DNA of 62,282 bases, counting the filler. It is 5 parts of 5 records of this genome, joined end to end, with 100 filler letters (N's around TTAATTAATTAA, not from the genome) between each part and the next. Parts side by side here need not be neighbours in the genome. Positions count along the whole stretch, not along the records: positions 1 to 13,336 come from SRR2962707_5323; 4 more parts are not named here. The stretch is one strand, 5' to 3'. The notes under the pieces were generated by a model. It made no database searches. It was not told the DNA's origin and worked only from the letters and a program-made list of their open reading frames with translations. Positions within the stretch are counted from its first letter, which is position 1. Each line of letters begins with the position of its first letter. Positions 1 through 53,680 of this stretch are shown piece after piece. Both the position numbers and the translations under genes were made by a program.

Positions 1-7
1 TAAAAAT

Positions 8-664
8 ATGTTTCTTCATACACATCCTTATTCCCCATTTATTCCTAAAAATGCAACTAAATTAATTGTAGGAACATTACCTCCGCCAAGATTTACGGAA
101 AAAGTGTTTAAAGAAGGCGATGTAGATTTTTCTTACGGAAGTAGAGATGGATATTTGTGGCCCATTTTAAATAGAATCTTTAGTTTGAATTTAGTTTTTG
201 AAACTACGGAAGAAGCTATACAGCAGCGTAAATTGTTTTTGGCAGCCTATCAAATTGGGATTTGTGATATAGTTGCTTCCGCAGAAAGAGAACAAATAGA
301 CGCGTCAGATTTGGGGATGAAGAATATAGAATGCCGGGATTTGATTTTTTATTTAAATGAAAATCCTACCATTGATACCATTTTATTTATGGGAGGAAAT
401 AGTAAAAATGGTCCTGAATATCTTTTTAGGAAGCAATTAAAGGATAAAGGAATAAAATTAGAAACTATTTCTTCGGATGTACCTCGTAAGTATCAATTTA
501 AAATTGGGAATCGAAATATAAAAACAGTTTCATTAACAGCCCCATCGGGAGCGGCAAATAGGGCGGTGGGAGCTATACCAGAATATAAAGCACTAAAAAA
601 GAAGCACCCTAATCTCAATACTATTGATTTTAGAGTGCTTCAGTATATTAAATATTTTGTATGA
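8..664 (+). CDS. Uracil-DNA glycosylase superfamily protein (Mug/TDG-like)
   Basis: 218-aa ORF with N-terminal HPY..F...A..LIVGTLPP, FxYGS and C-terminal LTAPSGA motifs typical of Bacteroidetes UDG-family proteins. Confidence 0.75.
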   Translation: MFLHTHPYSPFIPKNATKLIVGTLPPPRFTEKVFKEGDVDFSYGSRDGYLWPILNRIFSLNLVFETTEEAIQQRKLFLAAYQIGICDIVASAEREQIDASDLGMKNIECRDLIFYLNENPTIDTILFMGGNSKNGPEYLFRKQLKDKGIKLETISSDVPRKYQFKIGNRNIKTVSLTAPSGAANRAVGAIPEYKALKKKHPNLNTIDFRVLQYIKYFV

Positions 665-701
665 TAATTAATTGATTATCGGTACAAATTATTGGGGGAT
701 T

Positions 702-842
702 TTATTTTTTATTCTGTTGATCTTTGATGGTTTTCTCATCAATATCAAACTTATTAGTATCTATATTCCTATTTCCCGTTGGGTTTGTAGGATTTGTTTG
801 TTCTTGTTTTCTTTTCCATTTTTTATCTTTAATAGTGCTCAT
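702..842 (-). CDS. Putative small hydrophilic protein (46 aa), absent from the ORF track
   Basis: ATG at 842 to TAA at 702, MSTIKDKKWKRKQEQTNPTNPTGNRNIDTNKFDIDEKTIKDQQNKK; A-rich leader (AAAAAAAGAAATT-ATG) and an upstream TATCTTTA resembling the Bacteroidetes -7 box. Confidence 0.45.
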   Translation of the reverse strand: MSTIKDKKWKRKQEQTNPTNPTGNRNIDTNKFDIDEKTIKDQQNKK

Positions 843-940
843 AATTTCTTTTTTTTAGTTTACTTAAAGATACAAATGAACTTGGGAAAAGGCTCTTAAA
901 ACAATTGTAAGTTATTGTTAATGGTTTAACATTTAAATAG

Positions 941-2536
941 TTAGTGCATTGCTGAAGCATCAACTTTGCCTTTACCTTTTTTAATCATTAATACAAAAGG
1001 AACGCAAATTAGAAATAGAATCCCCAAATATAAAAATATATCCATGTAAGACAATACCGTACTTTGTAAGGTAATACTTCCTTCCATTAATTGATATGCT
1101 TTATCTAAAGATTCGTTTACACTAAAACCTTTCGACATAAACATTTGTTGATACGCTTGCAACCGCTCCTGTACTTTAAAATCTATTTTTGAGAGGTTTG
1201 GTAATAAGTCCACTCGGTGTTGCTGACTTAATCTGGCAACAAACGTAGTGATAATTGCAATCCCAAAAGATCCCCCTAATTGTCTCATCATCCCTGTAAA
1301 TGCGGCACCTTCTCCAATGTCTTTTCCTCTTAATGTAGAAAGAGATAAGGTTGTTATTGGAACAAATAGTAATCCTAACCCAAATCCACGCGCTACTAGA
1401 GGCCAAAACATATGTTCGGAACCAGTATCTGGAGTCATCATGTTATACATCCAATAACTATAAATAAAGAATACTACAAACCCAATGGCTGCTAAGTATT
1501 TTTGTGGAACTCCACGCTCTAAAAGTTTACCAATAATAGGCATCATTAGTGCGGTGGTAACAGAACTTGGAACTAGTAGTAAACCAGCATCGGTGGCTGT
1601 CCATCCTAAAATAGATTGGGTGTAAATTGGAATAATAAAGGTAGAACCATACAAACCAAAACCAAGAATAAATGTTAAAATAGTACCGATTCTTAGGTTG
1701 TAATCTTTTAAAACTCTGAGGTTTACAATTGGGTGTTCATATACAAGTTCTCTCCATATAAATAATAACAATCCTAGACCAGATACAATAGTTAGTATTA
1801 TTATAGTGGTATCTGCAAACCAATCGTCTTGTTGTCCGTGCTCTAAAATATATTGCAAGGAACCAATAAAAGAAGCTAGAAAAATAATACCCCACCAGTC
1901 TACTTGACTTGCTTTTAGCTTTTCTCCATACTTCGGACTTTTAATATATATAATGGTTAAAAATGTGGCAATAATTCCAATAGGCACATTGATATAAAAT
2001 ATATATGGCCAAGAGAAATTATCTACTAAATAACCACCTAATGGAGGTCCTAATGTAGGACCAACAATTACTCCCATTCCATAAATAGCTTGTGCCATTC
2101 CTCTTTTTGCAACAGGGTACGTTTCTGTAATAATTGTTTGGGCCGTAACTAGTAATGCTCCGCCCCCCATACCTTGTATGAATCGGAAAGCTACTAGTTC
2201 CCATAAATTTGTTGCATTTCCACACAAAAAGGATGCTGCAGTAAATATTATAATTGAAGCTGCAAAGTAATTACGTCTCCCAAATTGTTTAGACAACCAA
2301 CTGGTCATTGGGATAATAATTACGTTTGCAATTGCATAGGCCGTAATAACCCAGGCAATATCTGTAAGAGAAGCTCCTAAGCTACCTCTCATGTCGTTTA
2401 ATGCAACGTTAACAATTGTAGTGTCAATAATTTCTAGAAGGGCACAAAGAATAGCCGTAATGGTTATTATGACCCTAGTAAAACCATATTCTACTAAACT
2501 GTCTTCGTCTTGAACTTGAACTTGTGCTTCTGCCAT
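941..2536 (-). CDS. emrB: DHA2-family MFS efflux permease (EmrB/QacA type)
   Basis: 531 aa, about 14 hydrophobic segments, motifs LEIIDTTIVNVAL, FGRRNYF, RFIQGMGGG, GPTLGPPLGG. Confidence 0.93.
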   Translation of the reverse strand: MAEAQVQVQDEDSLVEYGFTRVIITITAILCALLEIIDTTIVNVALNDMRGSLGASLTDIAWVITAYAIANVIIIPMTSWLSKQFGRRNYFAASIIIFTAASFLCGNATNLWELVAFRFIQGMGGGALLVTAQTIITETYPVAKRGMAQAIYGMGVIVGPTLGPPLGGYLVDNFSWPYIFYINVPIGIIATFLTIIYIKSPKYGEKLKASQVDWWGIIFLASFIGSLQYILEHGQQDDWFADTTIIILTIVSGLGLLLFIWRELVYEHPIVNLRVLKDYNLRIGTILTFILGFGLYGSTFIIPIYTQSILGWTATDAGLLLVPSSVTTALMMPIIGKLLERGVPQKYLAAIGFVVFFIYSYWMYNMMTPDTGSEHMFWPLVARGFGLGLLFVPITTLSLSTLRGKDIGEGAAFTGMMRQLGGSFGIAIITTFVARLSQQHRVDLLPNLSKIDFKVQERLQAYQQMFMSKGFSVNESLDKAYQLMEGSITLQSTVLSYMDIFLYLGILFLICVPFVLMIKKGKGKVDASAMH

Positions 2537-2539
2537 AAC

Positions 2540-3622
2540 TTATTTTAAATGAACATCTACCAAAACATTCATTCCTGAACGTAATTTTGCTAGTTTTTCA
2601 GTGTCGTTATCTTTTGAAAAATCTATTTTAACTGGAAGACGTTGTATTGTTTTAACAAAGTTTCCTGAAGCATTATCTGGAGGTAATAAAGAAAATTTAG
2701 CTCCTGTTGCTGGAGAGAAAGCAGTAATTACCGCATTGAATTCTTCTCCAGGATAAGCATCTACTTCTATAGTTACTTTTTGCCCAATATTCATTTTTTC
2801 TAATTGGGTTTCTTTGAAGTTTGCTACCACCCATTTATCGTTAGTATTTACTAGATAAAATAACGATTGTCCTGGTTGAACAAATTGCCCTTCTTGTAAA
2901 TCAACGTTAGATAATTGCCCGTCTATAGGCGCAGTAACAAAAGTGTAACTTAAGTTTAGTCTCGCAGCATCTAATTGTGCTTGTGCACTTTTTACATTTG
3001 CTTCGGCAACTGCCACTTGTTTTTCTGAAATTTCTGTTTGAGAAACCGCAGCTTTACGTTGACTAGCACTTGCGTTTTGCTGACTTTTTAATACTTCTAA
3101 TTGTTTCTCTGCGGATTGCTTAGCAGCAAGCGCCTCTTCGTATTGTTGTTCGGTTATAGAGTGATTTTTATATAAATTCTCATAACGTTTAAAATCATTT
3201 TCTGCTCTCCATAAAGTAATTTTTGCATTCTCTAAATTTCCTTCTGCAGAATTTACTTGCGCATTAGAAGTAGCTACATTAGCTTGGTAAGAACCAATAC
3301 TTGCTTTTGCAACTATTAATTGACTTTCGGCTCCTGCTAGCGCAGCTTTTGCTTGCTCTAACTGTACCATATAATCTTGATCATTAATAGTGAAAAGTGT
3401 ATCTCCTTTCTTAACTTTTTCATTATCGCTCACATATACTTTTTCAACATAACCACCTACATGAGGGATTATCGGACTCATATTAGCTTCTATTTGTGCA
3501 TCATCTGTTTCTTCATGAGAAAAAGAATGAACTATTTTAATTCCACCGTATATAATTCCTATAATGATTAAAGAACCGATAATGAGGGTGAATTTCTTGT
3601 TTGTTTTTTTCTTTTGTTCCAT
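2540..3622 (-). CDS. emrA: EmrA/HlyD-family periplasmic adaptor
   Basis: N-terminal TM anchor, ETDDAQ, coiled-coil hairpin, FSLLPPDNASGNFVKTIQRLPVKI. Confidence 0.93.
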   Translation of the reverse strand: MEQKKKTNKKFTLIIGSLIIIGIIYGGIKIVHSFSHEETDDAQIEANMSPIIPHVGGYVEKVYVSDNEKVKKGDTLFTINDQDYMVQLEQAKAALAGAESQLIVAKASIGSYQANVATSNAQVNSAEGNLENAKITLWRAENDFKRYENLYKNHSITEQQYEEALAAKQSAEKQLEVLKSQQNASASQRKAAVSQTEISEKQVAVAEANVKSAQAQLDAARLNLSYTFVTAPIDGQLSNVDLQEGQFVQPGQSLFYLVNTNDKWVVANFKETQLEKMNIGQKVTIEVDAYPGEEFNAVITAFSPATGAKFSLLPPDNASGNFVKTIQRLPVKIDFSKDNDTEKLAKLRSGMNVLVDVHLK

Positions 3623-3640
3623 TTTATTGATAATAGTAGA

Positions 3641-4942
3641 TTATTGTACGTCTGTGTTTATTTGTCCTTGAGCATTTAAAAGCTCATAATAGTTTTGTAT
3701 GATGTCTGCTTTAGAATATGCCAAATTGATTTTAGCTTGAAGCTGGTCAATATCTGCTTCAAGTAAATCGTTGGTGTCTACCAATCCATTGTCATATTTA
3801 TCTTTTACAATTCTATAATTTTCAATAGCTTGTTCTTCAGACTTTAGATATACATCGTATTTTTTATTGGCAAGATTGTAGTTTTGAGTAGCATCTTCAA
3901 TTTGAATCTGAATTTTATCTTGAACCATATCTATAGTATGTTGTAGTTCTTCTGCTTGACTTTTAGCAACTTTAACATCACTTTTTGCTTTAAAAATATC
4001 AGCTAAATTATAAGACACTCCAACCCCAAAATTCATAGCATCTGTAATGGTAAGTGCATTTTTAATGTCTAATGCAACATAACCTCCCATTAAAGAAATA
4101 CTTGGGTAGTATTTACTTTGAGCTACTTTGATATTGTTTTCAGCAGCTTCTTTTCGGTATTCTAATGCTCTTAAATCGCTTCTTTGAATACTATCATTTA
4201 ACTCAGAACCAAGAGTAAGTTGAAAATTATTATCTTCAATATTAATTTTAGTGTCTTTTGGCATTTTTAAGGTAGTTACCAAGCTGAAGTTTAAAATCTT
4301 TTCATTCTTTTTGGCTTCCTCTAAACTAACTTCAATATTAGATTCTTGTAATTGAGCTTTCAATAAATCATTTCTCGCTAAAAGGCCATTTTGTTCCATA
4401 GCGGTGAAATCTTTTACACGCTGTTGAGCACTTTTTAGGTTCTCTTGGATAAGCGCTACAGTTTTATGGGCTTTGTATAAATTTACGTAGTCATTTACTG
4501 TCTGTAATGCAATATCTTCTTTATTACTTTTAGCATCAAGTGTAGCCGCTTCATAATTATTTTTACTAGCTTTTACTAAATTATTTAGTTTAAAACCTGT
4601 AAAAATAGGAACAGAAGCAGTTGCTTGTCCAAGCATTAAACTGCTAATGTCTGGTTCTGCAGCTCCACTTTGTTGTCCGCCAGTATCAAATTTTATATCG
4701 GCGTTAACCTTAGTAAGGTGTTGGTATTGTCCAGCAATTTTTAAATCTGGGTACCGTTTGCTTTTTGCTACTTTTACTTCATAGCCAGCAGTGTTTACTT
4801 TAGTGTCTGCAATTTTTGACTCGTCGCTGTTTAGGAGCGCTAATTTAATAGCTTCCTCTAGCGTAAGCGAGGTTTCCTGCGATTGCATGTTTTTAATACC
4901 TAAAATACCTAGTAGGCATATGAATATAATTTTACGCTTCAT
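3641..4942 (-). CDS. TolC-family outer-membrane efflux protein
   Basis: Signal peptide, LTLEEAIKLAL start, two OEP-like repeats, position in a tripartite efflux operon. Confidence 0.92.
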   Translation of the reverse strand: MKRKIIFICLLGILGIKNMQSQETSLTLEEAIKLALLNSDESKIADTKVNTAGYEVKVAKSKRYPDLKIAGQYQHLTKVNADIKFDTGGQQSGAAEPDISSLMLGQATASVPIFTGFKLNNLVKASKNNYEAATLDAKSNKEDIALQTVNDYVNLYKAHKTVALIQENLKSAQQRVKDFTAMEQNGLLARNDLLKAQLQESNIEVSLEEAKKNEKILNFSLVTTLKMPKDTKINIEDNNFQLTLGSELNDSIQRSDLRALEYRKEAAENNIKVAQSKYYPSISLMGGYVALDIKNALTITDAMNFGVGVSYNLADIFKAKSDVKVAKSQAEELQHTIDMVQDKIQIQIEDATQNYNLANKKYDVYLKSEEQAIENYRIVKDKYDNGLVDTNDLLEADIDQLQAKINLAYSKADIIQNYYELLNAQGQINTDVQ

Positions 4943-5552
4943 AAGTTAATAGTGCTTTTATTGTTTGTTTTATATGGTCTGTAAGAATTGTGTGTATAAA
5001 ATCATCTAAGGAATCTGTGGTATACAGTTGATGGATGTCTTTATAGAACCGTTTGTTGTAATAAAAATTGAAATATGATCCTAATACAGTTGGGATTATT
5101 AAAGGGATATTTACTTTTTTTGAAAATACTCCTGCCTTTTGTCCTTTCTTAACAAAGTCTTCAATAATTAAATAATTGTTTTTCTTTATCTGAATGTAAC
5201 TTTCAAAATCTATTTGACGCGTTTCATTTGAATATTCAAAGTGAATAATCTTATAAACACGTCTATTTCTATGAATTCTGGCAACTAATACAGTAACTAT
5301 TTCATCAATTTTCTGTAGGTAATCTATGTCTTTAGATAAAATAGATTCTAACTCCATAGTGAAGTTTGCCGTTTTGTAGCTCAAAAGAGATTCTAGTAGT
5401 TTCTCTTTAGATCCAAAATAGTAAGAAATCATTGCAATATTAATGTCTGCCTCTTTAGCAATAGCTCTAATAGAAGTGCCATCATATCCGTTTTCGGCAA
5501 ACATTTTTTCTGCTACTTCTAGTATTTTTATTTGCTTCTCATTTAACTCCAT
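4932..5552 (-). CDS. TetR/AcrR-family transcriptional regulator
   Basis: N-terminal HTH ILEVAEKMFAENGYDGTSIRAIAKEADINIAMISYYFGSKEKL. Confidence 0.94.
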   Translation of the reverse strand: MELNEKQIKILEVAEKMFAENGYDGTSIRAIAKEADINIAMISYYFGSKEKLLESLLSYKTANFTMELESILSKDIDYLQKIDEIVTVLVARIHRNRRVYKIIHFEYSNETRQIDFESYIQIKKNNYLIIEDFVKKGQKAGVFSKKVNIPLIIPTVLGSYFNFYYNKRFYKDIHQLYTTDSLDDFIHTILTDHIKQTIKALLTYEA

Positions 5553-5577
5553 AAAAATGAATGTTAGAAATTCTGTG

Positions 5578-5615
5578 CAAAATTAAACAATTGTTTAAAT
5601 TAAACGTTTGTTTAA
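5578..5615 (-). promoter_or_regulatory. Promoter -7 box overlapped by tandem palindromic TetR operators
   Basis: TTAAACAATTGTTTAA (5583-5598, perfect palindrome) and TTAAACGTTTGTTTAA (5600-5615); minus-strand TAATTTTG at 5578-5585 fits the Bacteroidetes TAnnTTTG consensus. Confidence 0.72.
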
Positions 5616-5747
5616 TTTCTATTTTAACATATAACGTTAGAGTACAATTAAAGTTTAAGAATAGAATTATAAGATTTAATGCAAAAGCACTATAATTCTA
5701 GCTGTAGAAGGGTAAAAGGATGAGGTTTTATAGAAAGAAAGAGTGTT

Positions 5748-5780
5748 AAAAAAGGTCTAGGAAATTAACTCCTAGACCTT
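5748..5780 (-). terminator. Intrinsic terminator of the trp operon
   Basis: 11-bp stem AAGGTCTAGGA/TCCTAGACCTT followed by a U-tract on the minus strand, downstream of trpA; second small hairpin at 5789-5806. Confidence 0.75.
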
Positions 5781-5826
5781 CTTAATAGAACTCGTTTAGA
5801 CGAGTTTACAATTAAAGTGTGTTTTT

Positions 5827-6588
5827 TTATTGAATTCCTTTAACAAAAGCATCAATGCCTTTAATTCCTTTTTCTTGAATCATTTTGATAAAAGCAGAGC
5901 CTATAATTGCTCCTTTGGCATGTGTTGTGGCAGCTTTAAAAGTTTCGGCATTGCTAATACCAAAGCCAACAATTTGTGGTGCTTTTAAATTCATATTCGC
6001 AATTCTTTCAAAATATTCACTTTGAGCATCCCCAAAATTGCTTTTAGCTCCTGTTACACTGGCAGAACTTACCATATAAATAAACCCGTTAGAAACCGAA
6101 TCTATAAAACGAATCCGTGCTTCTGAGGTTTGCGGTGTAATTAAAAATACATTTATGAGTCCGTGTTTTTCAAATATTGCTTGATATTGCTCATGGTAAA
6201 CATCTACAGGAAGGTCTGGGATAATGAGTCCGTCAATACCAATATCGGAGCATTTCTGGCAAAAAGCTTCTACACCATATTGTAAAATAGGATTGAAATA
6301 CCCCATAATAATTAACGGAATGTGGACTGTTTTGCGAATATCTTTTAGTTGTTGAAAAAGCTTTTCTGTAGTCATTCCGTTTTTAAGTGCCTGCGTAGAG
6401 CTTGCTTGTATGGTAGGACCATCTGCCAGCGGATCGGAAAATGGGAGTCCGATTTCGAGCATGTCAACTCCACTTTCTTGAAGCGCTTCTATAACGGGTA
6501 CTGTATCTTCTATAGCTGGGTAACCTGCCGTAAAATAGATGGATAACAGTTTTTTATTTTCTTCCAGTTTTTTACTGATTCTGTTCAT
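5827..6588 (-). CDS. trpA: Tryptophan synthase alpha subunit
   Basis: YFTAGYP, EIGLPFSDPLADGPTIQ, VGFGIS, IIGSA. Confidence 0.98.
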   Translation of the reverse strand: MNRISKKLEENKKLLSIYFTAGYPAIEDTVPVIEALQESGVDMLEIGLPFSDPLADGPTIQASSTQALKNGMTTEKLFQQLKDIRKTVHIPLIIMGYFNPILQYGVEAFCQKCSDIGIDGLIIPDLPVDVYHEQYQAIFEKHGLINVFLITPQTSEARIRFIDSVSNGFIYMVSSASVTGAKSNFGDAQSEYFERIANMNLKAPQIVGFGISNAETFKAATTHAKGAIIGSAFIKMIQEKGIKGIDAFVKGIQ

Positions 6589-6606
6589 TTGTTTCTTATT
6601 TGCGTT

Positions 6607-7791
6607 TTACAAATCAAAATAATCAATGTATGTATTTAAATCCTTGTCGCCACGACCGGATAAACTAATTACAACAACGTCATTTTGGTTGAATTTTTTA
6701 TGATTAAATATTGCCAAGGCATGAGAACTTTCAATTGCAGGAATAATTCCTTCTGTTTTGCATAATTCTAATCCTGCTTTCATAGCATCATTATCGGTTA
6801 CAGAGAAAAATTCTCCACGACCCGAATTATACAAATGTGCATGCATTGGGCCAACACCAGGGTAATCTAATCCTGCCGAAATGGAATAAGGCTCAGTAAT
6901 TTGCCCATCGGGGGTTTGCATTAATAGGGTTTTACAGCCGTGAATAATGCCTTCTTTTCCTAAAACTGAAGTAGCAGCACTTTCCCCAGAGTCAATACCT
7001 TTTCCAGCGGCTTCTACAGCTATGATACCTACTTTTTCGTCATCTAAAAAATGATAATAAGTACCTGCAGCGTTACTTCCTCCACCTATACAAGCTACTA
7101 CATAATCGGGATTTTGGCGACCTTCTTTTTCTTGTAGCTGCCATTTTATTTCTTCGGAAATAATGCTTTGAAAGCGTGTTACCATATCTGGATATGGATG
7201 TGGACCAATAGCCGATCCAATAATGTAATGCGTATCTACTGGGTTGTTAATCCAATCTCGAATAGCCTCGTTGGTGGCGTCTTTAAGAGTGCGACTCCCA
7301 GAGAGGGCAGGGCGTACTTCGGCGCCAAGCATTTTCATTCGAGCCACATTTGGAGATTGGCGAGCAATATCAATTTCTCCCATATAAACTACACAATCTA
7401 TACCCATAAGTGCACAAACAGTAGCGGTTGCAACACCGTGTTGTCCAGCGCCTGTTTCAGCAATAATTCTTTTCTTGCCTAGCTTTTTGGCCATTAATAT
7501 TTGCCCGATGGTATTGTTTATTTTATGAGCTCCTGTATGGTTAAGGTCTTCCCTTTTTAAATAAATTTTTGCTCCATGTTTTTCAGACAATCGCTTGGCA
7601 AAATATAATGGAGAAGGGCGTCCTACATAATCTTTTAGTAATTGATTGAATTCTTCCTTGAAAGAATCTTCATTCATAATTGAAAGATATTGCTGACGTA
7701 GTTCTTCAACATTTGGATAGAGCATTTCTGGAATATATGCACCTCCAAATTCTCCATAATATCCTTTTTCGTTTACATTGTATGTGTCCAT
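6607..7791 (-). CDS. trpB: Tryptophan synthase beta subunit
   Basis: [15 protein letters not shown] (PLP lysine), [30 protein letters not shown]. Confidence 0.99.
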
Positions 7792-7883
7792 TTTTTTTAG
7801 TTGTAAAGTTGAATGTTTTAAAGTTTAAAGTAGGGAGGAAAAGAGTAGTGACTATATCTCTTTTAATTTCCTAGTCCCCAATT

Positions 7884-8576
7884 CTATTCTCTAGAAACAT
7901 TTTTATATCTCGAAATAAAATCTTTTAATTGTGCTGCGTTTTTCAATCCAGGTTCCACTTCAAATTTACTATTTACATCAATAGCATGAATTGGGAGATT
8001 AGGATTGATATGTTTTATTTTTTCAATGTGTTCTGTACCAATTCCGCCACTTAGAAAGAACGGTTTTTCTGATGGATAATTTTTTAGTACTTCCCAATTA
8101 AAGGTATATCCGTTGCCTCCAGGGAGTTTCCCTTTGGTGTCGAATAAATAATAATCGGCTATTTTTTCATACGGAGACAAGATTGAAAAATCAAATTCAT
8201 CTTTAATAGAAAACACTTTTATGATTATTGTTTTATGAGGAAGTTCTTTTTTTAGATTTTGACAAAATTCGACCGATTCATCCCCATGTAATTGAACTCC
8301 GTTTAAATGATGCTGATTAACTTTTTCAATTATATAATCAATAGTTGCGTTTACAAAAACACCTATTTTTTTGATGTTTTTTGGTAATTCTGGAATAACG
8401 TCCTCATTAAAACGTGCCGATTTTTCATAAAAAATAAACCCGAGATAATCTGGTTGTAACCCTGCAATAGTTCTGATATTATCTTCATATTTCATTCCAC
8501 ATATTTTGAGACCTATCTCAACGCTTCTATGTGGATGTTTGGGTTTGAGAGTGTTATTTGAATCCGATTTGTCCAT
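7884..8576 (-). CDS. trpF: Phosphoribosylanthranilate isomerase
   Basis: KICGM, VQLHGDE, LFDT, GGNGYTFNW, LSGGI, DVNSKFE. Confidence 0.96.
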   Translation of the reverse strand: MDKSDSNNTLKPKHPHRSVEIGLKICGMKYEDNIRTIAGLQPDYLGFIFYEKSARFNEDVIPELPKNIKKIGVFVNATIDYIIEKVNQHHLNGVQLHGDESVEFCQNLKKELPHKTIIIKVFSIKDEFDFSILSPYEKIADYYLFDTKGKLPGGNGYTFNWEVLKNYPSEKPFFLSGGIGTEHIEKIKHINPNLPIHAIDVNSKFEVEPGLKNAAQLKDFISRYKNVSRE

Positions 8577-8650
8577 TTTTTTGTATCGTTAGAGATAGAA
8601 TTGAAGGTAATTACTTAACAAATTTACAGCTTTACCAATTTTTTAATTTT

Positions 8651-9436
8651 TCAATCTTTTAATTTCCCAATAAACTCTTTTGCACTTGCTCCTGGATCTC
8701 CAGTTTTCATAAAATTCTCGCCTATTAAGAAGCCTTTGTAGTCAAATTGCTGTAGGTCTTTTATAGCTTTAATAGAACTAATTCCACTTTCCGACACTTT
8801 TACAAAATCGTGAGGAATTTTTTCTGATAAGGTTTTACTGATGTCTAAACTCACCTCAAAAGTCTTTAAATTCCGATTGTTTACTCCTAACATATCCAGA
8901 CTCGGCATAATAGATTTCTGTAATTCTTCTTCATTATGGATCTCTAATAATACATCTAAACCTAAATTTTTAGCTGCTTCAGATAATGATTTTATCTCAT
9001 TGCGAGTTAAAATAGCTGCTATTAATAAAATTACATCAGCACCAAAAGCTTTAGCTTCTATTATCTGATATGGGTCGATGATAAATTCTTTTCGTAATAA
9101 AGGCATTTGAACAGCGGCTCTAGCCAATAGCAAATCGTCTAAAGAGCCTCCAAAATACTTGCCATCTGTTAAAACCGACATCCCGCATACTCCTGCATCT
9201 TCATAACCTTTTGCTACATCTTGTACGTTTAAAGATTGATTGATAACCGATTTTGAAGGAGAACGACGTTTATGTTCGGCAATAATGCCAGTGTTGCTAG
9301 CGCTCAGTTTATTGGCTAAAGAAACACAATCACGCTCAAAGAGCACGCTTGACTCCAATTGTGAAATAGGAATTAATTCTTTTTTTAAAGCAACTTCATT
9401 TCTTTTATCTGCTACTATTTTATCTAGGATGTTCAT
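8651..9436 (-). CDS. trpC: Indole-3-glycerol phosphate synthase
   Basis: IIAEHKRRSPSK, SVLTD, LRKEFIID, GVNNRNL, VSESGI, LIGE. Confidence 0.98.
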   Translation of the reverse strand: MNILDKIVADKRNEVALKKELIPISQLESSVLFERDCVSLANKLSASNTGIIAEHKRRSPSKSVINQSLNVQDVAKGYEDAGVCGMSVLTDGKYFGGSLDDLLLARAAVQMPLLRKEFIIDPYQIIEAKAFGADVILLIAAILTRNEIKSLSEAAKNLGLDVLLEIHNEEELQKSIMPSLDMLGVNNRNLKTFEVSLDISKTLSEKIPHDFVKVSESGISSIKAIKDLQQFDYKGFLIGENFMKTGDPGASAKEFIGKLKD

Positions 9437-9459
9437 TTTTTCTGTTTATAAGATTTAAT

Positions 9460-9482
9460 GATTGAAGAATTGAAAGATTGAA
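9460..9482. repeat. Left arm of a perfect 23-bp inverted repeat built of 8-nt units
   Basis: GATTGAAGAATTGAAAGATTGAA, within a period-8 array 9451-9490. Confidence 0.9.
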
Positions 9483-9507
9483 TAATTTGATATAGGCATA
9501 TTTAACT

Positions 9508-9869
9508 TTACATTTTAGTTTTTAAATATTTGATGAAATTGGATAGGTTTTGAGAAATTTCGATACTTAAATAATAACTTTTTTCAATCTCTAATGGAGA
9601 TGTTAATTCCAATTCTTTTGCTAAAATCAACATGCTTCTTACTTCTGAACAACTACCTTTTGCAATTTTCAAATATTTAATAAATTGTTTGTTGTTTTAT
9701 ATTCAGATCCTTCAGCTATGTTATTAGTTATTGAAATTACAGCTCTTTTTATTTGATCTTTGAATCCAAATTCTCTTTCAAAAGGTTTGTTGTTTACTAA
9801 TTCAAAAATCAATTTAGCTAATAGGATTCCTTTTTTATAGACTTCAAATTCTTCAAAAGATTTAGTCAT
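9508..9869 (-). pseudogene. Four-helix-bundle protein (23S rRNA intervening-sequence protein family), frameshifted by one missing base near 9695
   Basis: MTKSFEEFEVYKK...FGFKDQIKRAVISITNNIAEGSEY, then in the shifted frame NNKQFIKYLKIAKGSCSEVRSMLILAKEL...LSNFIKYLKTKM*; span 362 nt, one short of 121 codons. Confidence 0.88.
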
Positions 9870-9942
9870 AATCTTTAAATTCCTTATACGTTTCCATATT
9901 TTAAATAATAGTTTTTTCCGACATCCATCACCTATCAAGTCC

Positions 9943-9965
9943 TTCAATCTTTCAATTCTTCAATC
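9943..9965. repeat. Right arm of the perfect 23-bp inverted repeat
   Basis: TTCAATCTTTCAATTCTTCAATC, exact reverse complement of 9460-9482. Confidence 0.9.
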
Positions 9966-10014
9966 TTTTAATTTTCTATGTGTTTTCCGCCTCCCAACTC
10001 CCATCTTTCAATCC

Positions 10015-11007
10015 TTAAATTGTTAAATCTTTCAATTTCTTAAACGCTTCCATTCCTTTTCCGCTTAAAAGCGATTCTTTGGCTAGTTCAAAACCTTCAA
10101 TTGGAGTGAGTTCTTTTACCGTTGCAATGGCCATTCCTGCATTGGCACATACCACATTATTTTGTGCTTCTGTACCTTTTCCGCTTAAAACATTCACAAA
10201 AATCTTAGCGGAAGCTTCTATAGAATCTCCTCCTGTAATAGCTGCTTGAGCGTGTTCTTTTACACCAAAATCTTGAGCAGAAAGCATTTGCTCGGTTTGA
10301 TTACGGATAGCTTTTGCAGGCCCTGTCAGGGAGATTTCATCATAACCATCTAAAGCATGTAAAATGGTATAATTCTTATCGGTGTTTTGATATAGATAGC
10401 CATACATTCTAGCTAATTCTAAATTGAAAACGCCTACCATTTGATTTTTAGGAAAGGCTGGGTTTACCATGGGACCGAGCATATTAAAAAAGGTTTTTAC
10501 AGCCAATTCTTTTCTAATTGGAGCCACATTTTTCATGGCAGGATGGAAAAGGGGCGCGTGTAAAATACAGATTCCAGCTTTGTCAATAGATTTTTTTAAG
10601 AAATCTTGATTGTTTGAAAATTTAATTCCTAAATATTCCATTACATTACTAGAACCACATTTAGAAGAAACTCCGTAATTTCCATGTTTAGTAACATGTA
10701 CTCCAGCGCCAGCTGTAACAAAAGATGCCAATGTTGAGATGTTAAAAGTGTCCTTGCCATCACCTCCAGTTCCACATAAGTCTATAGCATTGTAATCTTT
10801 TAAATCTACAGCTAAGCATAAATCTAAAAGGGCATCTCGGAAACCTTCTAATTCTTCAATAGTGATGCTTCGCATCATGTAAACGGTCAAAAAAGCCGCA
10901 ATCTGACTCGTATTGTACGAACCATTCGAAATATTTACTAATACATTTTTAGCTTCTTCCTTCGATATGGTTTCGTGATTTATAAGTCTGTTTAGTATTT
11001 CTTTCAT
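10015..11007 (-). CDS. trpD: Anthranilate phosphoribosyltransferase
   Basis: DLCGTGGDGKDTFNIST, KHGNYGVSSKCGSS, DGYDEISL. Confidence 0.98.
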   Translation of the reverse strand: MKEILNRLINHETISKEEAKNVLVNISNGSYNTSQIAAFLTVYMMRSITIEELEGFRDALLDLCLAVDLKDYNAIDLCGTGGDGKDTFNISTLASFVTAGAGVHVTKHGNYGVSSKCGSSNVMEYLGIKFSNNQDFLKKSIDKAGICILHAPLFHPAMKNVAPIRKELAVKTFFNMLGPMVNPAFPKNQMVGVFNLELARMYGYLYQNTDKNYTILHALDGYDEISLTGPAKAIRNQTEQMLSAQDFGVKEHAQAAITGGDSIEASAKIFVNVLSGKGTEAQNNVVCANAGMAIATVKELTPIEGFELAKESLLSGKGMEAFKKLKDLTI

Positions 11008-11013
11008 TTTAAT

Positions 11014-11101
11014 AGTATTGAGTTGTTAGTTAAGTGGTTAGTGTTTAAAAAAATCGATTTAAATATTTAATCTAACTACTTTGTACTTAATTCTAACATC
11101 T
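11014..11101. repeat. Degenerate inverted arrays of 7-nt AG-N5 units in the trpG-trpD spacer
   Basis: Left AGTATTG AGTTGTT AGTTAA; right arm read on the minus strand AGATGTT AGAATTA AGTACAA AGTAGTT. Confidence 0.6.
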
Positions 11102-11663
11102 ATTTAGTAAGCCAATTCTCCAATATTTTTTTACCATCTGGAGTCAAAACCGATTCAGGATGGTATTGAACTCCGCAGACATCATATTCGGTATGAGTAA
11201 GAGACATTACTTGTCCGTTTTTATCATATGAAGTAGCTTTTAAAACGTTGGGCAAATTAGGGTCTACTACCCAGCTGTGATACCTTCCTACCTCAATTTC
11301 TTTTGGTAAACCTTTATAAATAGGATCTTCTTGGGTGATTTCAATTTTTGTAGCCACTCCATGGTAAACTTCATCTATATTAATGAGTTTCCCACCAAAT
11401 ACTTCTCCAATAGCTTGTTGCCCTAGGCAAACCCCAAAAATACTTTTGCTAGGCGCATAGGTTTTTATAATTTCTTTTAATAAACCCGCTTCCTCTGGAA
11501 TTCCAGGGCCTGGAGAGAGGACAATCTTGTCAAAAGGAGCCACGTCTTCTATGGTTAATTGGTCGTTTCTTCTTACAGTTACTTCGCAACCTAAATCTTC
11601 TAAATAGTGCACCAAGTTGTAAGTAAAACTGTCGTAGTTATCTATAACTAATACTTTTTTCAT
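11100..11663 (-). CDS. trpG: Anthranilate synthase component II (glutamine amidotransferase)
   Basis: IDNYDSFTYNL, LSPGPG, GVCLG, RYHS, QYHPES. Confidence 0.97.
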   Translation of the reverse strand: MKKVLVIDNYDSFTYNLVHYLEDLGCEVTVRRNDQLTIEDVAPFDKIVLSPGPGIPEEAGLLKEIIKTYAPSKSIFGVCLGQQAIGEVFGGKLINIDEVYHGVATKIEITQEDPIYKGLPKEIEVGRYHSWVVDPNLPNVLKATSYDKNGQVMSLTHTEYDVCGVQYHPESVLTPDGKKILENWLTK

Positions 11664-11742
11664 TTCTATAAGTTTGTAAAATTTTAAAGTTGAAAGTTTT
11701 ATTGGAAATGGTTTGTTGTTACCATAACCAAAAAACTATCAG

Positions 11743-13143
11743 CTATATATCTTCCGCCATTTCCATAGCTTTTTTCAAAGCTCCTAATTTGTTATATGTT
11801 TCTTGTAATTCGCTTTCTGGTTTTGATTCAGAAACAATCCCTGCGCCAGCTTGATAGTACAGCTCGTGATTTTTACTTAAAAAAGTACGGATCATAATAG
11901 CGTGATTAAAATTCCCTTCAAAATCCATAAAGCCTATTGCTCCTCCATAATAATCTCGATTGGTAGCTTCATATTTATCAATAAGTTGCATTGCCATATA
12001 TTTTGGTGCTCCACTTAGAGTTCCTGCGGGAAAGGTATCTGCAACTACTTGCATTGTTGGAATTTCTTTCTTTTTCTGTCCTGTAACTTTAGAGACTAAA
12101 TGAATAACATGAGAGAAAAATTGTACTTCTCGATAGGTTTCTACTTCAACTGTATTTCCATTTCTGCTGAGGTCGTTTCTTGCTAAGTCAACTAACATTA
12201 CATGTTCACTATTTTCTTTTTCGTCCACCGCCAATTGTTTTGCTAATTCCGCATCTTTTTCATCGTTTCCAGTACGCTTAAATGTTCCCGCTATTGGATG
12301 GATTTCTGCTTTGTTGTCTTTTACAATTAATTGAGCTTCTGGAGAACTTCCGAAAATTTTAAAGTTTCCATAGTCAAAATAAAACAGGTAAGGGGAGGGG
12401 TTTATGGAGCGTAATGCTCTGTAGACATTAAATTCATCCCCTTTAAATTTTTGTGCAAATCTGCGACTAAGAACTAATTGAAAAACATCCCCTCTGTGAC
12501 AATGTTTTTTTGCATTTTCTACTAATTTTTTATAATCGTTATCTTCTAATTTAGAGGTAGGCTCGCCTACTTTATTAAAATTATAGGAAGCAAAGTTTTT
12601 AGCTTGAAGAAGTTGATGGATATCGTCAATATTAGTGTCGCAATCATAACAATGACAAAAGATATAGGCTTCATTTTTAAAATGATTGATGGCAATTATA
12701 TTTTGGTAAACTGCATAATAAATATCAGGAATATTTAAAGAATCTTGTTTTTTAGAAATTTCAAGATCCTCAAAATATTGAACCCCATCATAAGCAATAT
12801 AGCCAAAAAGACCGTTGTTTATAAACTTAAAATCGGTTTTATCGGTTTTGAAATGCTTTGTAAAATCTTCAATAACCGACGGCACATGCACCTCTTTTGT
12901 AATTTTTTCTTCTGAAGATTCCCCGTCTGGAAATGTTTTTGAAATAACATTGTTTTCAACCTTAATTGTAGCAATTGGATTAAAACAGATATAAGAAAAA
13001 CTGTTATCGTTTGCATGATAATCGCTACTTTCTAGCAGGATACTATTTGGATAGCGGTCTCGTATTTTTAAGTAAACACTTACAGGAGTAATGGTGTCCG
13101 CTAGTATTTGTTTGTAATTAGTTTTTAAATGATATGTTTTCAT
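11743..13143 (-). CDS. trpE: Anthranilate synthase component I
   Basis: LLES, GDVFQLVLS, NPSPY, GSSPE, PIAGT, EHVMLVDLARND, FPAGTLSGAPK, QAGAGIV. Confidence 0.97.
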   Translation of the reverse strand: MKTYHLKTNYKQILADTITPVSVYLKIRDRYPNSILLESSDYHANDNSFSYICFNPIATIKVENNVISKTFPDGESSEEKITKEVHVPSVIEDFTKHFKTDKTDFKFINNGLFGYIAYDGVQYFEDLEISKKQDSLNIPDIYYAVYQNIIAINHFKNEAYIFCHCYDCDTNIDDIHQLLQAKNFASYNFNKVGEPTSKLEDNDYKKLVENAKKHCHRGDVFQLVLSRRFAQKFKGDEFNVYRALRSINPSPYLFYFDYGNFKIFGSSPEAQLIVKDNKAEIHPIAGTFKRTGNDEKDAELAKQLAVDEKENSEHVMLVDLARNDLSRNGNTVEVETYREVQFFSHVIHLVSKVTGQKKKEIPTMQVVADTFPAGTLSGAPKYMAMQLIDKYEATNRDYYGGAIGFMDFEGNFNHAIMIRTFLSKNHELYYQAGAGIVSESKPESELQETYNKLGALKKAMEMAEDI

Positions 13144-13336
13144 ACGTTTATTTTTATTGCTTTTTTAAAAGTCGGATGTAATACCATTAATTATTACATT
13201 GTTTGGTTTGATAAAACTGCTAATAGGCATTTCATAACTTTTATTAAATTCCTCATTGAGGGTTTTTATCCCCCAGAGCCTGTCCTTAGTTTACCGAATG
13301 GCTCTTGGTCGAAATGGATTAAATTATTTTCCTTTA

Positions 13337-13436
13337 NNNNNNNNNNNNNNNNNNNNNNNNNNNNNNNNNNNNNNNNNNNNTTAATTAATTAANNNNNNNN
13401 NNNNNNNNNNNNNNNNNNNNNNNNNNNNNNNNNNNN
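13337..13436. other. Artificial contig spacer
   Basis: 44 N + TTAATTAATTAA (stops in all six frames) + 44 N. Confidence 0.98.
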
Positions 13437-13437
13437 G

Positions 13438-13461
13438 CAGCAGCAGCAGCAGCAGCAGCAG
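13438..13461 (+). repeat. (CAG)8 microsatellite, in-frame poly-Gln, at the contig edge
   Basis: Direct reading; same frame as the 13480 ORF. Confidence 0.9.
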
Positions 13462-16400
13462 CACACTCGAAGGCTCCGCGTGAATGAATTCGAAAATTCT
13501 GCACCCTCGTCCTCTGCAGCCCGCAGAGTCGTAGTTGCCAAGAACCAGCCGACACAGCGCGACATAGACCTTGGGCTTCGAGTGCGGCGGAAGCCGAAGC
13601 AGCAGAGGAATGTCCAGAAGGCTGCTGCTGCTGCGAGTCAAGGTCGTTCACCGCTGGACTCGAGCAGCGACGAGTCGGAGCTTTTGAACAGAGTTCTCCA
13701 CCTGCCTCGGTCGCAGGCTGCCGCCACGGGAAATAAGAAGGCGAAAAACAACAACAAAAACGGCAAGGCGAGTCCGCACAAGCACCGAAGAAGGGCGGCG
13801 ACAGTAGCAACGAGCCGGCAAAAGCAAGAAGAGGATGCCGATGTGCCGCAGGAATCATCGTCGATTCCGCCAGAAAAGCGCAAGCGCCTGAGCTGGGAGA
13901 CCGACAGCGACGAGGACGATGCTGAAGAGCGTGCCGCTGTCGCAGCTCTTCTCGCAAAGCACAAGCGAGAAGGACCTGCAGCAGCTGATTCGGTGAGCGA
14001 AACCACTCACAAGTTGTTGGCTTCTGGCAATAATATTGTCCCGGCGACTCGTCCATCATTTGCACCTGATGCAGACATCCTTGCGGCACTTGACGACTCT
14101 GACTCGTCCGGTGAGCAGGATGATGGGGACAGCAGCGATTCGAGCGAGGTTTTTGACAGCAAGTCTCGGTTCGGTCATCGCGCAGAGCCAGAGTCTTCAC
14201 CTTCAACTGCGTCGTCCGATGACGAATCGGGCTCCGGGACGGAGTCGAGATTAAGTACATCATCAAAGGGTGATGAAAGGTCGCTTAAGCGTTCAGGGCA
14301 AAGTACCAGCCGGAGGACCAAGTCTGCACGGGCCAGACAGTCGCGTCGTGATAGTCAGCGCACACGAACTGACGTTTTGCTTCATGGTGAGGATGAAGGA
14401 CACAGAAAAAGGGGAAGGCACGGTCGGCGTTCGCCTTCTGTGCAAAAGGACAAGTCGTCGGGAACTGGCACGCACATAACAGCGAGTGGGACTGAAAATG
14501 ACGGCCACCCAAGTGAACGCTTTAAACGAAAACGAAGCAGCTCTCGCCGACATCGGGCCCGCACCGCAGTCGATCTCGTTGGAAGCGTGCCGAAATCGCA
14601 TGGGCTGCCTTTGTTCAGACCATATTTTCTCAAAAGTGATGACGATTCCACAGCCAGTTGTTCTCGGGATCCCACAGAGAAAGAGCTGCTGCAGTCGTTC
14701 CGACCCCTGGTGATCAGCAAGGACGCAGCAACCACCGGAATGGGGGGCGGTAGCAATATTGCATCGGGCGCGAGTGTGTGCATCCCAGGCCCTACTGCGT
14801 ACTATCTTCGACCGTATCAGAAATCAGGCGTTGCTTGGCTTTACACACATGTTCAAAAGAATCGCGGCGCAATTCTTGGTGATGACATGGGGTTGGGTAA
14901 AACTGTGCAGATTGCTGCCTTGGTGTCGGCTGTTCTTCGAAAAACCGGACAACGAGATACCGATCTGCGAGCTAAAGAAATCAAAGTTGCAGCAGCACGC
15001 TCTGTGCGCAATGAATATTTTCAAGCACGGGCAGCAGCAGCTGCTCGCAATCGCTTAGCTGTGAAGAAAGAAAAATCGGAGTCCACTGGCAAAGGAAACA
15101 GGCGCGACAAGGCACTGGTCAACCCGTTCGAGTCATCTGATGAGGACTTTGAAGATAAGCTCCTTGCACAAATCAGGCTTGATCAACCCATCAAGCAAGA
15201 GGACAATCCAGCGGCTGCTGGCACCAATGATTCGAGCGTCTCCGCGAAGTCCACACCGGCGAAGTCATCACACTTGCAGCTTCGACGCAAGTTGAGACGG
15301 CCAATGCAAACGGCCACTGGGTTGTTTGGCGAAGGCCCGTTGCCTGGCGGCACACGTTCACAGCCTTGGCAGACTTTGGCACATCCACCGATCTTGGTTG
15401 TGGCCCCTGCATCGGTTCTGCATCAGTGGAAGCAGGAATTCAATACTTGGGGCTATTTTGACCTGGGAACGCTCAATGATGGTGGTTCGGAGGAAAAAGA
15501 GACGGTATGCGCCGTGCCGACGTTTATGAATTTTGGCGCCGATACAGCGTTTTGTTTTGTTTTCAATACTTGGGGTGGAAATTTGTTTTGTCGTTTTGTC
15601 TCAGTTGCTCGAGGACGTCAAGTGGGGAATTCGCGAAATTTTGATCATCAGCTATAGCGCCCTGACAGGCCGTTATGAGGATCAACTGAAAGAAATATGT
15701 TGGCGCATGGTGATATTTGATGAAGTAAGTTGTTGCACATACGATACTGATCTTTCAATTTCAGTATGTCTCCTTGGTCGGAATCGCGGTCTTGCAGTCA
15801 AACCGAACATGGCTGGCGATGTCCGACTGTAGGCTCACCTTTTGAAGAACCACAGGTCTGCTCGCACTCTTGCAGCAACCGAGTTGAATTGCAGTATTAA
15901 ATTTGGATTAACGGGGACAGCAATTCAAAATGATCCTGTCGATCTCTGGGCGCTGTTCAACGTCGTCGCTCCCAATTTTCTTGGTTGCCGGGCGGAGTTT
16001 GAAAACTTTTACGCAAAACCCCTCAAGCGGGCGCGGCAGAAAACCGCTAGTCTGGAAATTCAAGAGCGTGGACGTACACGACAGGTATGACGCAGCGTTG
16101 TCCTTGCCGATATGTTTTCTCAGCATTCTTTCAATATCCGTACCACAACCACATTTTTCGTGAAATGGCACTGGCAGGCATCACTGGAAAAGCGCTATAC
16201 TCAGCGACTGCTTCGGCGAACAAAGGAAACCTACGCCAAGGAATTGCCCGGGAAACGCGAGCTTGTGGTCTTTTGTCCACTGACCGACCTGCAGGTGTGG
16301 AATGTGGATGCGGTTGGCTAAATGGGACTGGACTTGTCTTTCGCGCGGCCGACTGTGACTTGTGGTTGTAGGCACGTGTCTATGAGCGAATTCTTGAGAG

Positions 16401-19292: not shown

Positions 19293-19392
19293 NNNNNNNN
19301 NNNNNNNNNNNNNNNNNNNNNNNNNNNNNNNNNNNNTTAATTAATTAANNNNNNNNNNNNNNNNNNNNNNNNNNNNNNNNNNNNNNNNNNNN
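19293..19392. other. Artificial contig spacer
   Basis: N44-TTAATTAATTAA-N44. Confidence 0.98.
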
Positions 19393-29407: not shown

Positions 29408-29507
29408 NNNNNNNNNNNNNNNNNNNNNNNNNNNNNNNNNNNNNNNNNNNNTTAATTAATTAANNNNNNNNNNNNNNNNNNNNNNNNNNNNNNNNNNNNN
29501 NNNNNNN
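29408..29507. other. Artificial contig spacer
   Basis: N44-TTAATTAATTAA-N44. Confidence 0.98.
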
Positions 29508-53580: not shown

Positions 53581-53680
53581 NNNNNNNNNNNNNNNNNNNN
53601 NNNNNNNNNNNNNNNNNNNNNNNNTTAATTAATTAANNNNNNNNNNNNNNNNNNNNNNNNNNNNNNNNNNNNNNNNNNNN
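53581..53680. other. Artificial contig spacer
   Basis: N44-TTAATTAATTAA-N44. Confidence 0.98.

Follow-up and report, generated by a model that had tools for sequence, protein, structure and literature searches.

The stretch of DNA analysed here (the window) has a length of 62,282 bases, and its positions 1-13336 form a contig that is 99.5% identical to Galbibacter orientalis DSM 19592 (locus L001). The intercistronic space between trpD and trpC on this contig is filled by a cassette, in which a gene for a four-helix-bundle (4HB) protein of the PF05635 family is enclosed by inverted arrays of 8-nt units. The cassette is probably a hairpin element of the intervening sequence (IVS) type, residing in an operon mRNA rather than in 23S rRNA and carrying its PF05635 gene in the loop of the array stem. 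The same hairpin-plus-gene design is general, being found in relatives from two phyla and in a true 23S rRNA IVS, and the cassette may also be processed and may be mobile. The proposal of the first-pass annotation, an IVS-like cassette within an mRNA operon, is thus partly supported, with respect to anatomy and kinship, but this particular copy is old, vertically inherited and broken.

Two exact occurrences of the 23-mer that forms the core of the arms were located in the window, at 9460-9482 on the plus strand and at 9943-9965 on the minus strand, with no mismatches between them. The chance expectation was 0.00, and none of 100 dinucleotide-preserving shuffles gave a match even when up to three mismatches were allowed, confirming the perfect 23-bp inverted repeat of 8-nt units claimed in the first-pass annotation. 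In the repeat search, the arms reach 9447-9492 and 9933-9978 (repeat I1), that is, 46 nt with 85% complementarity and 440 nt in between. Both arms are periodic at 8 nt, with in-phase ATTKAA or TTMAAT cores, and include four array units at 9453-9482 and three at 9943-9964. In mRNA sense (the operon is on the minus strand), the 5′ arm of the stem is 9933-9978 with the perfect core 9943-9965, and the 3′ arm, which ends 10 nt before the trpC ATG, is 9447-9492 with the perfect core 9460-9482. The long-range stem was predicted in both the minimum free energy and the centroid folds of 9420-10060 (z = -3.1; 0 of 20 shuffles folded as well). No other copies of this feature were found elsewhere in the window.

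The upstream side of the cassette holds two additional elements on the minus strand. The first array of the 5′ type, at 10003-10045 (8-nt units; repeat D1), overlaps the 3′ end of trpD, of which the final codons (KKLKDLTI*) are encoded by array units. It is complementary to 9444-9482 over 39 nt at 77% (repeat I2) and over 29 nt at 86% (repeat I3). The second element, at 9870-9897 and abutting the 4HB ATG, is a relic copy of the trpD 3′ end together with one array unit, 86% identical to 10026-10053 (repeat D3). In the Flavobacterium and Joostella relatives, a single 5′ array overlaps the final trpD codons and reaches to within a few bases of the 4HB ATG; the alignment identified the array at 10003-10045 as its counterpart. 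A stretch of about 140 nt, consisting of the second array (the perfect arm) and the trpD-end relic, is present in Galbibacter and absent from Joostella and Flavobacterium. Because this Galbibacter-only stretch holds the perfect 5′ arm, the perfect 23-bp match is a recent, Galbibacter-specific renewal of that arm; it is not the norm of the family, in which the arms average about 83% Watson-Crick pairs.

The PF05635 gene is the sole coding sequence between the arms. Its N-terminal half (9669-9869, minus strand; 66 codons followed by a stop) matched PF05635 with 55.4 bits over profile positions 1-57, and its C-terminal half (9508-9696, minus strand, in another frame) with 37.8 bits over positions 55-105. 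Both halves are above the cut-off of 33.8 bits, and together they span positions 1-105 of the 106 in the profile. Compared with two references, the intact 120-aa gene of L001 and the protein P0001, a deletion of one nucleotide, a missing T, between 9696 and 9697 splits the frame. This frameshift represents either a true pseudogene or an error of sequencing or assembly. Apart from the missing T, the cassette differs from that of L001 by two substitutions, and the arms are identical; in this genome, the gene is broken while the stem is intact. The claim that the arms enclose only a 4HB gene between trpD and trpC stands as far as the gene content is concerned, but the gene is no longer in a single frame.

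Structural properties of the protein were analysed on P0001, an intact protein of 120 aa that, the frameshift aside, is one substitution off the reading of the window; the N-terminal half is 100% identical to it over 86% of the query. P0001 scored 94.7 bits on TIGR02436 (cut-off 24 bits), and its AlphaFold2 model (pLDDT 88.8) consists of four long helices. In Foldseek comparison, the model gave TM scores of 0.87 to 2gsc, 0.80 to 2rld, and 0.78 both to 4dwl (Avd) and to 8ub7 (the ribonucleoprotein of a diversity-generating retroelement). P0001 gave no match to the Avd model NF033474, and some 4HB paralogues gave weak NCBIfam matches to DivGenRetAVD. The homology between PF05635 and Avd is noted, and Avd is described as part of a ribonucleoprotein, in the accessible text of PMC10053308. 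The function of the family, which had been taken as unknown, is not wholly so, since its members share their fold with Avd, an accessory protein of retroelements. Because Avd sits in a ribonucleoprotein, it is a reasonable guess that the Avd-like 4HB protein acts on nucleic acid.

A genome scan with P0001 gave 325 matched stretches, of which 185 encode relatives, and the best 80 of these were kept as loci. In 48 of the 80 loci, all from Flavobacterium, Galbibacter, Joostella and uncultured relatives, the 4HB gene is directly downstream of trpD, followed by trpC in 47 and by a contig end in one. For the other 32, a suf-operon context was confirmed, the 4HB gene being located between an Fe-S assembly gene (SufA/IscA-like) and sufB. 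A median dN/dS of 0.10 for 302 pairs shows purifying selection on the protein; even so, among the 80 main copies five have a premature stop and two lack an ATG. Nearly all of the 80 loci carry tandem WRATTKAA units within the 110 nt before the ATG and complementary units within the 90 nt after the stop. In the main family, a median of 5 nt separates the end of the 5′ array from the 4HB ATG, and likewise a median of 5 nt (interquartile range 5-7) separates the end of the 3′ array from the ATG of the next gene. All 95 4HB genes in the 80 loci, secondary paralogues included, are co-oriented with the surrounding operon.

The association between arrays and gene was then counted from the side of the arrays. 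A census of WRATTKAA arrays with at least three in-phase units, covering 1.45 Mb, identified 96 5′-type and 105 3′-type arrays versus 2.7 per shuffle set; strict arrays numbered 171 in the real sequence versus 0 in block shuffles. Adjacent pairs of a 5′-type and a 3′-type array amounted to 85. All 62 pairs spaced by 300-600 nt have a 4HB gene inside, as does the single pair more than 1,500 nt apart, while the 22 pairs with a loop shorter than 100 nt are geneless (empty hairpins), mostly occupying the entire trpE-trpG junction. None of the 85 pairs in this census surrounds a gene of any other kind. When complementarity was scored between the 110 nt upstream and the 90 nt downstream of each gene, 1,222 control genes gave a mean of 7.6 (95th percentile, 10). 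The mean was 18.3 for 79 main 4HB genes, with 97% above 10, and 14.2 for 15 secondary 4HB paralogues, with 73% above 10. The 13 control genes scoring 14 or higher were mostly operon genes between two junction hairpins; one of the 13, which encodes a Y1 transposase, has REP palindromes of its own.

Different lineages of the protein were found to use different arm units. Divergent paralogues, of which the 80 loci hold 15 (33-47% identical), are devoid of WRATTKAA arrays and instead carry inverted arrays of other units, such as GTTTAAR, GTTTCAR, the TACGAT type, GCCAAAAG and AGTCAAAG. In a plasmid set of 14 loci out of 22 matched records (Riemerella, cyanobacteria and Azospirillum), inverted arrays were clear in nine, partial in two and one-armed in two (one beside a transposase gene, the other a split gene), and one locus had none. 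The units of the cyanobacterial arms (GGGAAAA, GGGAGTA, AGGGAAC, GACAGGT and GGAGATA) are likewise inverted. In a 15 x 15 matrix of lineage representatives, the best match of every 5′ arm was its own 3′ arm (15 of 15); the mean was 18.2 on the diagonal versus 7.7 off it, and none of 10,000 permutations reached the diagonal mean. The plasmid set includes L092, from a replicon of Azospirillum lipoferum, in which the 4HB open reading frame (ORF) lies inside a 23S rRNA gene (Rfam LSU, 650 bits across the locus) and shows the same anatomy as the trp cassette. These observations altogether support the stem-with-ORF-loop architecture of rRNA IVSs that had been suggested for the cassette in the first-pass annotation.

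Based on this architecture, the following mechanism is proposed. The cassette would be co-transcribed with the trp operon; on its coding strand, neither a Bacteroidetes-type -7 promoter motif nor a terminator-like site was found. Within the transcript, the arms may pair and loop the 4HB gene out, and this pairing would place the stop of trpD next to the start of trpC at the base of the stem. The stem would then serve as a double-stranded RNA substrate to be cut by RNase III as in rRNA IVSs, and/or would keep trpD and trpC translationally coupled. Enzymes of the RNase III type need roughly two helical turns, and the arms in the window, with 23 perfect base pairs and 46 nt overall, exceed that length.

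Some structural variations of the cassettes were also observed. The number of arm units is highly variable, with about 10 or more tandem copies at L019:9890-10000, L035:9890-10460 and L047:1467-1560, which points to slippage-type expansion. The arm score of the window and its sister strain is 25, and higher scores were found only in L068 (26), L057 (28) and L035 (35). Some cassettes carry a complete hairpin (5′ array, short loop, 3′ array) right before the ATG plus an extra 3′ array past the gene (L069:11862-12363, L053 and L072; L014:9884-10369, L021 and L068). The 5′ array in cassettes of the L069 or L014 type can pair with either 3′ array, and it could therefore act as a switch. G exceeds C in the 5′ arm in all 15 lineages; this polarity was dropped as a sign of ORF orientation, because in a symmetrical inverted repeat the same excess is read from either strand, and shared ancestry of the lineages may be all that it reflects.

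Several points weigh against reading the cassette as an IVS-type element of mRNA, and the first group of these concerns the pairing of the arms. Within the subfamily of the window, real arm pairs scored 18.70 versus 18.71 for arms swapped between loci, with pairing energies of -28.06 and -28.06 kcal/mol, respectively, and shuffled partners scored 7.7. The complementarity in this subfamily rests on a shared unit and not on site-by-site compensation, and locus-specific covariation was rejected for it. Covariation of flanking inverted arrays among homologues, for which a test was proposed in the first-pass annotation, is thus present at the level of paralogue lineages (15 of 15) but not within the subfamily of the window. 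The arms average only about 83% Watson-Crick pairs, and the 79 cassettes, with 2,733 aligned positions in their arms, have 85 mismatches of the G-T or T-G kind versus 91 of the A-C or C-A kind. An asymmetry of G·U over A·C was therefore rejected as an RNA-level signal, and without such an excess there is no sign that it is in RNA that the arms pair. The plasmid copy L083 has no arms, the cassette L085 (Nostoc edaphicum plasmid, 489-857) lies antisense between two ribonucleotide reductase genes, and the cyanobacterial cassette L088 sits between oppositely oriented genes. The arms of L085 are the strongest seen (at least eight GGGAGTA units, score 31). In addition, the sample is weighted to one subfamily, as the loci are the best 80 of 185 relatives of one query, and the IVS protein of Coxiella is probably not produced in vivo according to the available part of PMC4990558.

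The second group of points concerns the history of the trpD-trpC copy. In a quick maximum-likelihood tree of 88 proteins, for which seven rows were left out (five main copies because of internal stops, and two secondary copies that were short), the 43 trpD-trpC copies and the one at a contig end formed a single clade (44 rows, SH-aLRT 90). This clade is nested among the sufA-sufB copies, with the divergent paralogues outside. Given that rooting, the cassette would have been copied once, arms included, from the suf to the trp junction, followed by vertical descent. The cassette between trpD and trpC is therefore an old resident, and the view of it as a recent coloniser of this junction is contradicted by its vertical fixation; by the same token, nothing shows mobility of that copy.

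Turnover was observed at other junctions. The contents of sufB-sufC, sufC-sufD, trpE-trpG and trpB-trpA vary between species, and both filled and empty junctions, a comparison of which had been proposed for trpD-trpC in the first-pass annotation, exist at all four. Three states each were found across species at sufB-sufC and sufC-sufD: a tight junction of 25-60 nt, one of about 70-90 nt with an empty hairpin, and one of about 500-520 nt in which arms of that type enclose a 4HB gene. L069 and L072 are close relatives, of which the main 4HB proteins are identical and the flanks 95.7% and 92.8% identical; their one large difference is the loop of the sufC-sufD hairpin, 457 nt versus 16 nt, a 4HB gene being present in one and absent from the other. 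In other species, sufC-sufD is occupied by a different lineage of the 4HB gene, with different arms.

Three other explanations were considered. In the first, the hairpin is generic, a punctuation of Flavobacteriaceae operons for transcript stability or coupling like the short tandemly repeated repetitive (STRR) hairpins of cyanobacteria, and the 4HB gene is an ordinary passenger without IVS kinship or mobility. Hairpins scoring 14 or higher are indeed common in these genomes, being detected in 92 of 650 co-directional gaps of 25-250 nt and in 26 of 54 convergent gaps, and in only one of 61 divergent gaps. In co-directional gaps, many of these hairpins consist of tandem arrays, from several unit families, without a 4HB gene, and accessory genes in trp operons (lipocalin-like and GNAT) have a complete hairpin on either side. 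Vertical inheritance at trpD-trpC fits this explanation as well, and so do the cyanobacterial STRR hairpins at hupS-hupL, for which the accessible text of PMC2670836 suggests the same roles. Against a mere passenger speak the exclusive presence of the 4HB gene, and of no other gene, in all 62 wide WRATTKAA pairs, and an association that spans two phyla with different units and includes a true rRNA IVS. In addition, the trp copy derived from a suf copy along with its arms, and one and the same junction is filled by different 4HB lineages or is empty in close relatives. Taken together, the generic hairpin is rather unlikely as the full explanation.

The second explanation places the function of the arms in DNA: the arrays would be terminal inverted repeats or REPIN-like DNA sites, the 4HB protein a DNA-binding or mobility cofactor, the ORF-less hairpins non-autonomous derivatives, and the complementarity a by-product. 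A DNA-level role of the arms is retained as a rival because G·U and A·C mismatches are equal and because one cyanobacterial cassette is antisense. Transposases match their own ends, and RAYTs their own REPs, and each lineage of the 4HB protein likewise has its own arm unit. The coexistence of ORF-bearing and ORF-less forms, the strand-symmetric mismatches in arms without locus-specific compensation, the single move from suf to trp and the recent presence/absence difference between L069 and L072 are all in favour of it. That the ORF of IVSs may serve mobility is an idea quoted in the available part of PMC4990558. On the other hand, no transposase, recombinase or reverse transcriptase was detected by Pfam among ORFs of at least 90 aa on the 13.3-kb contig, in agreement with the first-pass annotation as to the first two. 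The Y1 genes of two relatives are not flanked by 4HB arrays, one of them having its own REP palindromes, and a 120-aa helical bundle is not known to carry a catalytic motif. There are few copies, all at operon junctions and in the orientation of the operon, orthologues have been retained in several genera, and no target-site duplication was seen, although none was looked for. A DNA-level element is accordingly improbable. As the last explanation, a chance complementarity of low-complexity, AT-rich intergenic repeats in a repeat-rich region of about 30% G+C is practically refuted by the shuffles (0 of 100 matching the 23-mer with up to three mismatches, and 0 strict arrays versus 171) and by the recurrence of the design in 80 loci and in other phyla.

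Beyond the IVS-type cassette itself, a wider and much more tentative view can be considered. PF05635 genes and tandem-array stems might constitute one ancient class of hairpin-loop element that lives in any heavily transcribed RNA, including 23S rRNA, mRNAs of biosynthetic operons and cas operons, of which the rRNA IVSs would be just the habitat noticed first. The Avd-like protein would recognise its own arm units, which would explain why there is one unit type per protein lineage, and would control cleavage, protection or copying of the looped-out RNA, so that the element persists and occasionally moves into the loops of existing junction hairpins. This view is speculative and may well prove wrong.

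For about thirty years, the purpose of rRNA IVSs and of their conserved ORF has been a question, studied for the most part in organisms with which experiments are difficult. If the same type of element indeed resides in the trp and suf operons of ordinary Flavobacteriaceae, with a dN/dS of 0.10, the purpose of IVSs becomes testable, and the natural filled, empty and broken alleles would open the question to simple genetics and RNA mapping. It would also tie together IVS ORFs, STRR-type hairpins and Avd-like proteins, and explain the scatter of genes annotated as four helix bundle protein inside operons. Moreover, the reported linkage between 4HB proteins and CRISPR might partly be junction hitch-hiking, as at cas6-cas4 and cas10-cmr3. 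The 4HB domain is listed among CRISPR-linked proteins in a figure legend of PMC10910872. In our plasmid set, 4HB genes with inverted heptamer arrays were observed between cas6 and cas4 in L086 (Anabaena sp. 90 plasmid) and between cas10 and cmr3 in L089 (Picosynechococcus plasmid).

As to the surroundings of the cassette, the upstream neighbour trpD (10015-11007, minus strand; Pfam Glycos_transf_3 and Glycos_trans_3N) encodes anthranilate phosphoribosyltransferase and is 100% identical to the trpD of L001, and the downstream neighbour trpC (8651-9436, minus strand; Pfam IGPS, 266 bits) encodes indole-3-glycerol-phosphate synthase. The gene order on the minus strand is trpE, trpG, trpD, the 4HB gene, trpC, trpF, trpB, trpA, a TetR gene and an efflux operon; these last neighbours were assigned by Pfam as TetR, outer-membrane efflux protein, HlyD and MFS. 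No rRNA was found by Rfam in 4000-14500, and a known RNA family was rejected as well, as Rfam at E values up to 1 gave just three sub-threshold chance matches. The window consists of five contigs, joined by linkers at 13337-13436, 19293-19392, 29408-29507 and 53581-53680, each composed of 44 N, TTAATTAATTAA and 44 N. The parts beyond 1-13336 come from something other than Galbibacter; their G+C is about 45-59%, and the second part starts with CAG-type repeats. The jump of G+C within the window is due to the remainder being other contigs. In the plasmid set, L081 (Riemerella anatipestifer, labelled plasmid) carries lepA and sufA-4HB-sufB in a layout typical of chromosomes, so the record may represent part of a chromosome or else a secondary replicon of very large size.

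The trp operons of Flavobacterium (loci in the range L002-L047; for example, L002:7748-8188, L007:8502-8906, L032:8132-8968 and L002:13281-14352) include varied extra genes between the core genes, namely those for lipocalin-like, GNAT acetyltransferase, cytochrome c, GGACT, carbon-nitrogen hydrolase, LysE, tautomerase and beta-helix proteins, and several of these are bounded by complete tandem-array hairpins. Genes for Y1 (IS200-like) transposases were also observed within trp operons, at trpF-trpB and trpB-trpA (L043:11995-12546 and L040:13212-13835). The Y1 gene of L043 has REP-type palindromes of its own on its flanks, and these are found again at another junction; a link of Y1 transposases to the 4HB arrays was rejected, since the repeats at L040 and L043 are different or absent. 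Hairpins of other units without a nearby 4HB gene (GGTTGTT, GCTGTAA/GCTTTAG and TTCGCAAA; L058:13138-13212, L044:11201-11370 and L020:16321-16438) suggest that several families of hairpin units coexist per genome.

Among known systems, the early mRNA of phage T7 carries intercistronic RNase III hairpins, at which cleavage by this double-strand-specific RNase leaves separate stable mRNAs. The trp cassette is similar in that stem-loops lie between cistrons of one transcript, but the T7 hairpins are geneless and without tandem arrays, and cleavage of the cassette is putative. The REP/REPIN-RAYT systems share with the cassettes a single-copy gene between inverted repeat copies, ORF-less intergenic hairpin doublets and one repeat type per protein lineage. 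They differ, however, in that the arms of the cassette are tandem arrays and not one palindromic unit; the contig of the window has no Y1 transposase by the Pfam search described above, and the RAYT-like gene of the relative L043 uses unrelated REP palindromes. With Avd of the diversity-generating retroelements (4dwl and 8ub7), the 4HB protein shares the four-helix-bundle fold (TM 0.78), but no template repeat or variable repeat is nearby, and the Pfam search of ORFs of at least 90 aa in 1-13336 gave no reverse transcriptase.

The STRR sequences are hairpins of tandem 7-bp units located between cistrons in filamentous cyanobacteria, for example at hupS-hupL, for which roles in transcript stability or translational coupling are suggested in the accessible text of PMC2670836. 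The arms of the window are likewise tandem short units that form a hairpin between cistrons, and the ORF-less hairpins at trpE-trpG and sufC-sufD resemble STRR. The host Galbibacter is, however, a member of Flavobacteriaceae (Bacteroidota) and not a filamentous cyanobacterium, and the units in Bacteroidota are of 8 nt and 7 nt with other sequences, while those of STRR are usually 7 bp. No link between STRR-type hairpins and PF05635 genes in their loops was found in the papers searched. A search that did not include most subscription journals and supplements also gave no account of PF05635 genes within such arrays in operon mRNAs, or of tandem-array hairpins in Flavobacteriaceae.

The closest counterpart is the 23S rRNA IVS, as known from Leptospira, Coxiella and now L092. 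The IVS of Coxiella, of 428/444 nt with a 28-bp stem, is cut by RNase III according to the available part of PMC4990558. The cassette of the window differs from these in its host RNA, which is the trp operon mRNA and not helix 9, 25 or 45 of rRNA; in its vertical inheritance across genera, as opposed to the sporadic occurrence of IVSs; and in its broken ORF. For the cassette, excision by RNase III as in IVSs is a proposal. The anatomy is shared: the S23p/PF05635 protein family is common to both, and the sizes fall in one class, with 440 nt between the arms in the window, 397 nt in L092 and an element of 428/444 nt in Coxiella. A basal stem of terminal inverted repeats is formed by 46 nt at 85% complementarity in the window, by 36 nt at 86% in L092 and by 28 bp in Coxiella, and the arms of L092 consist, as in the window, of short tandem units, there of 7 nt and pairing in several registers.

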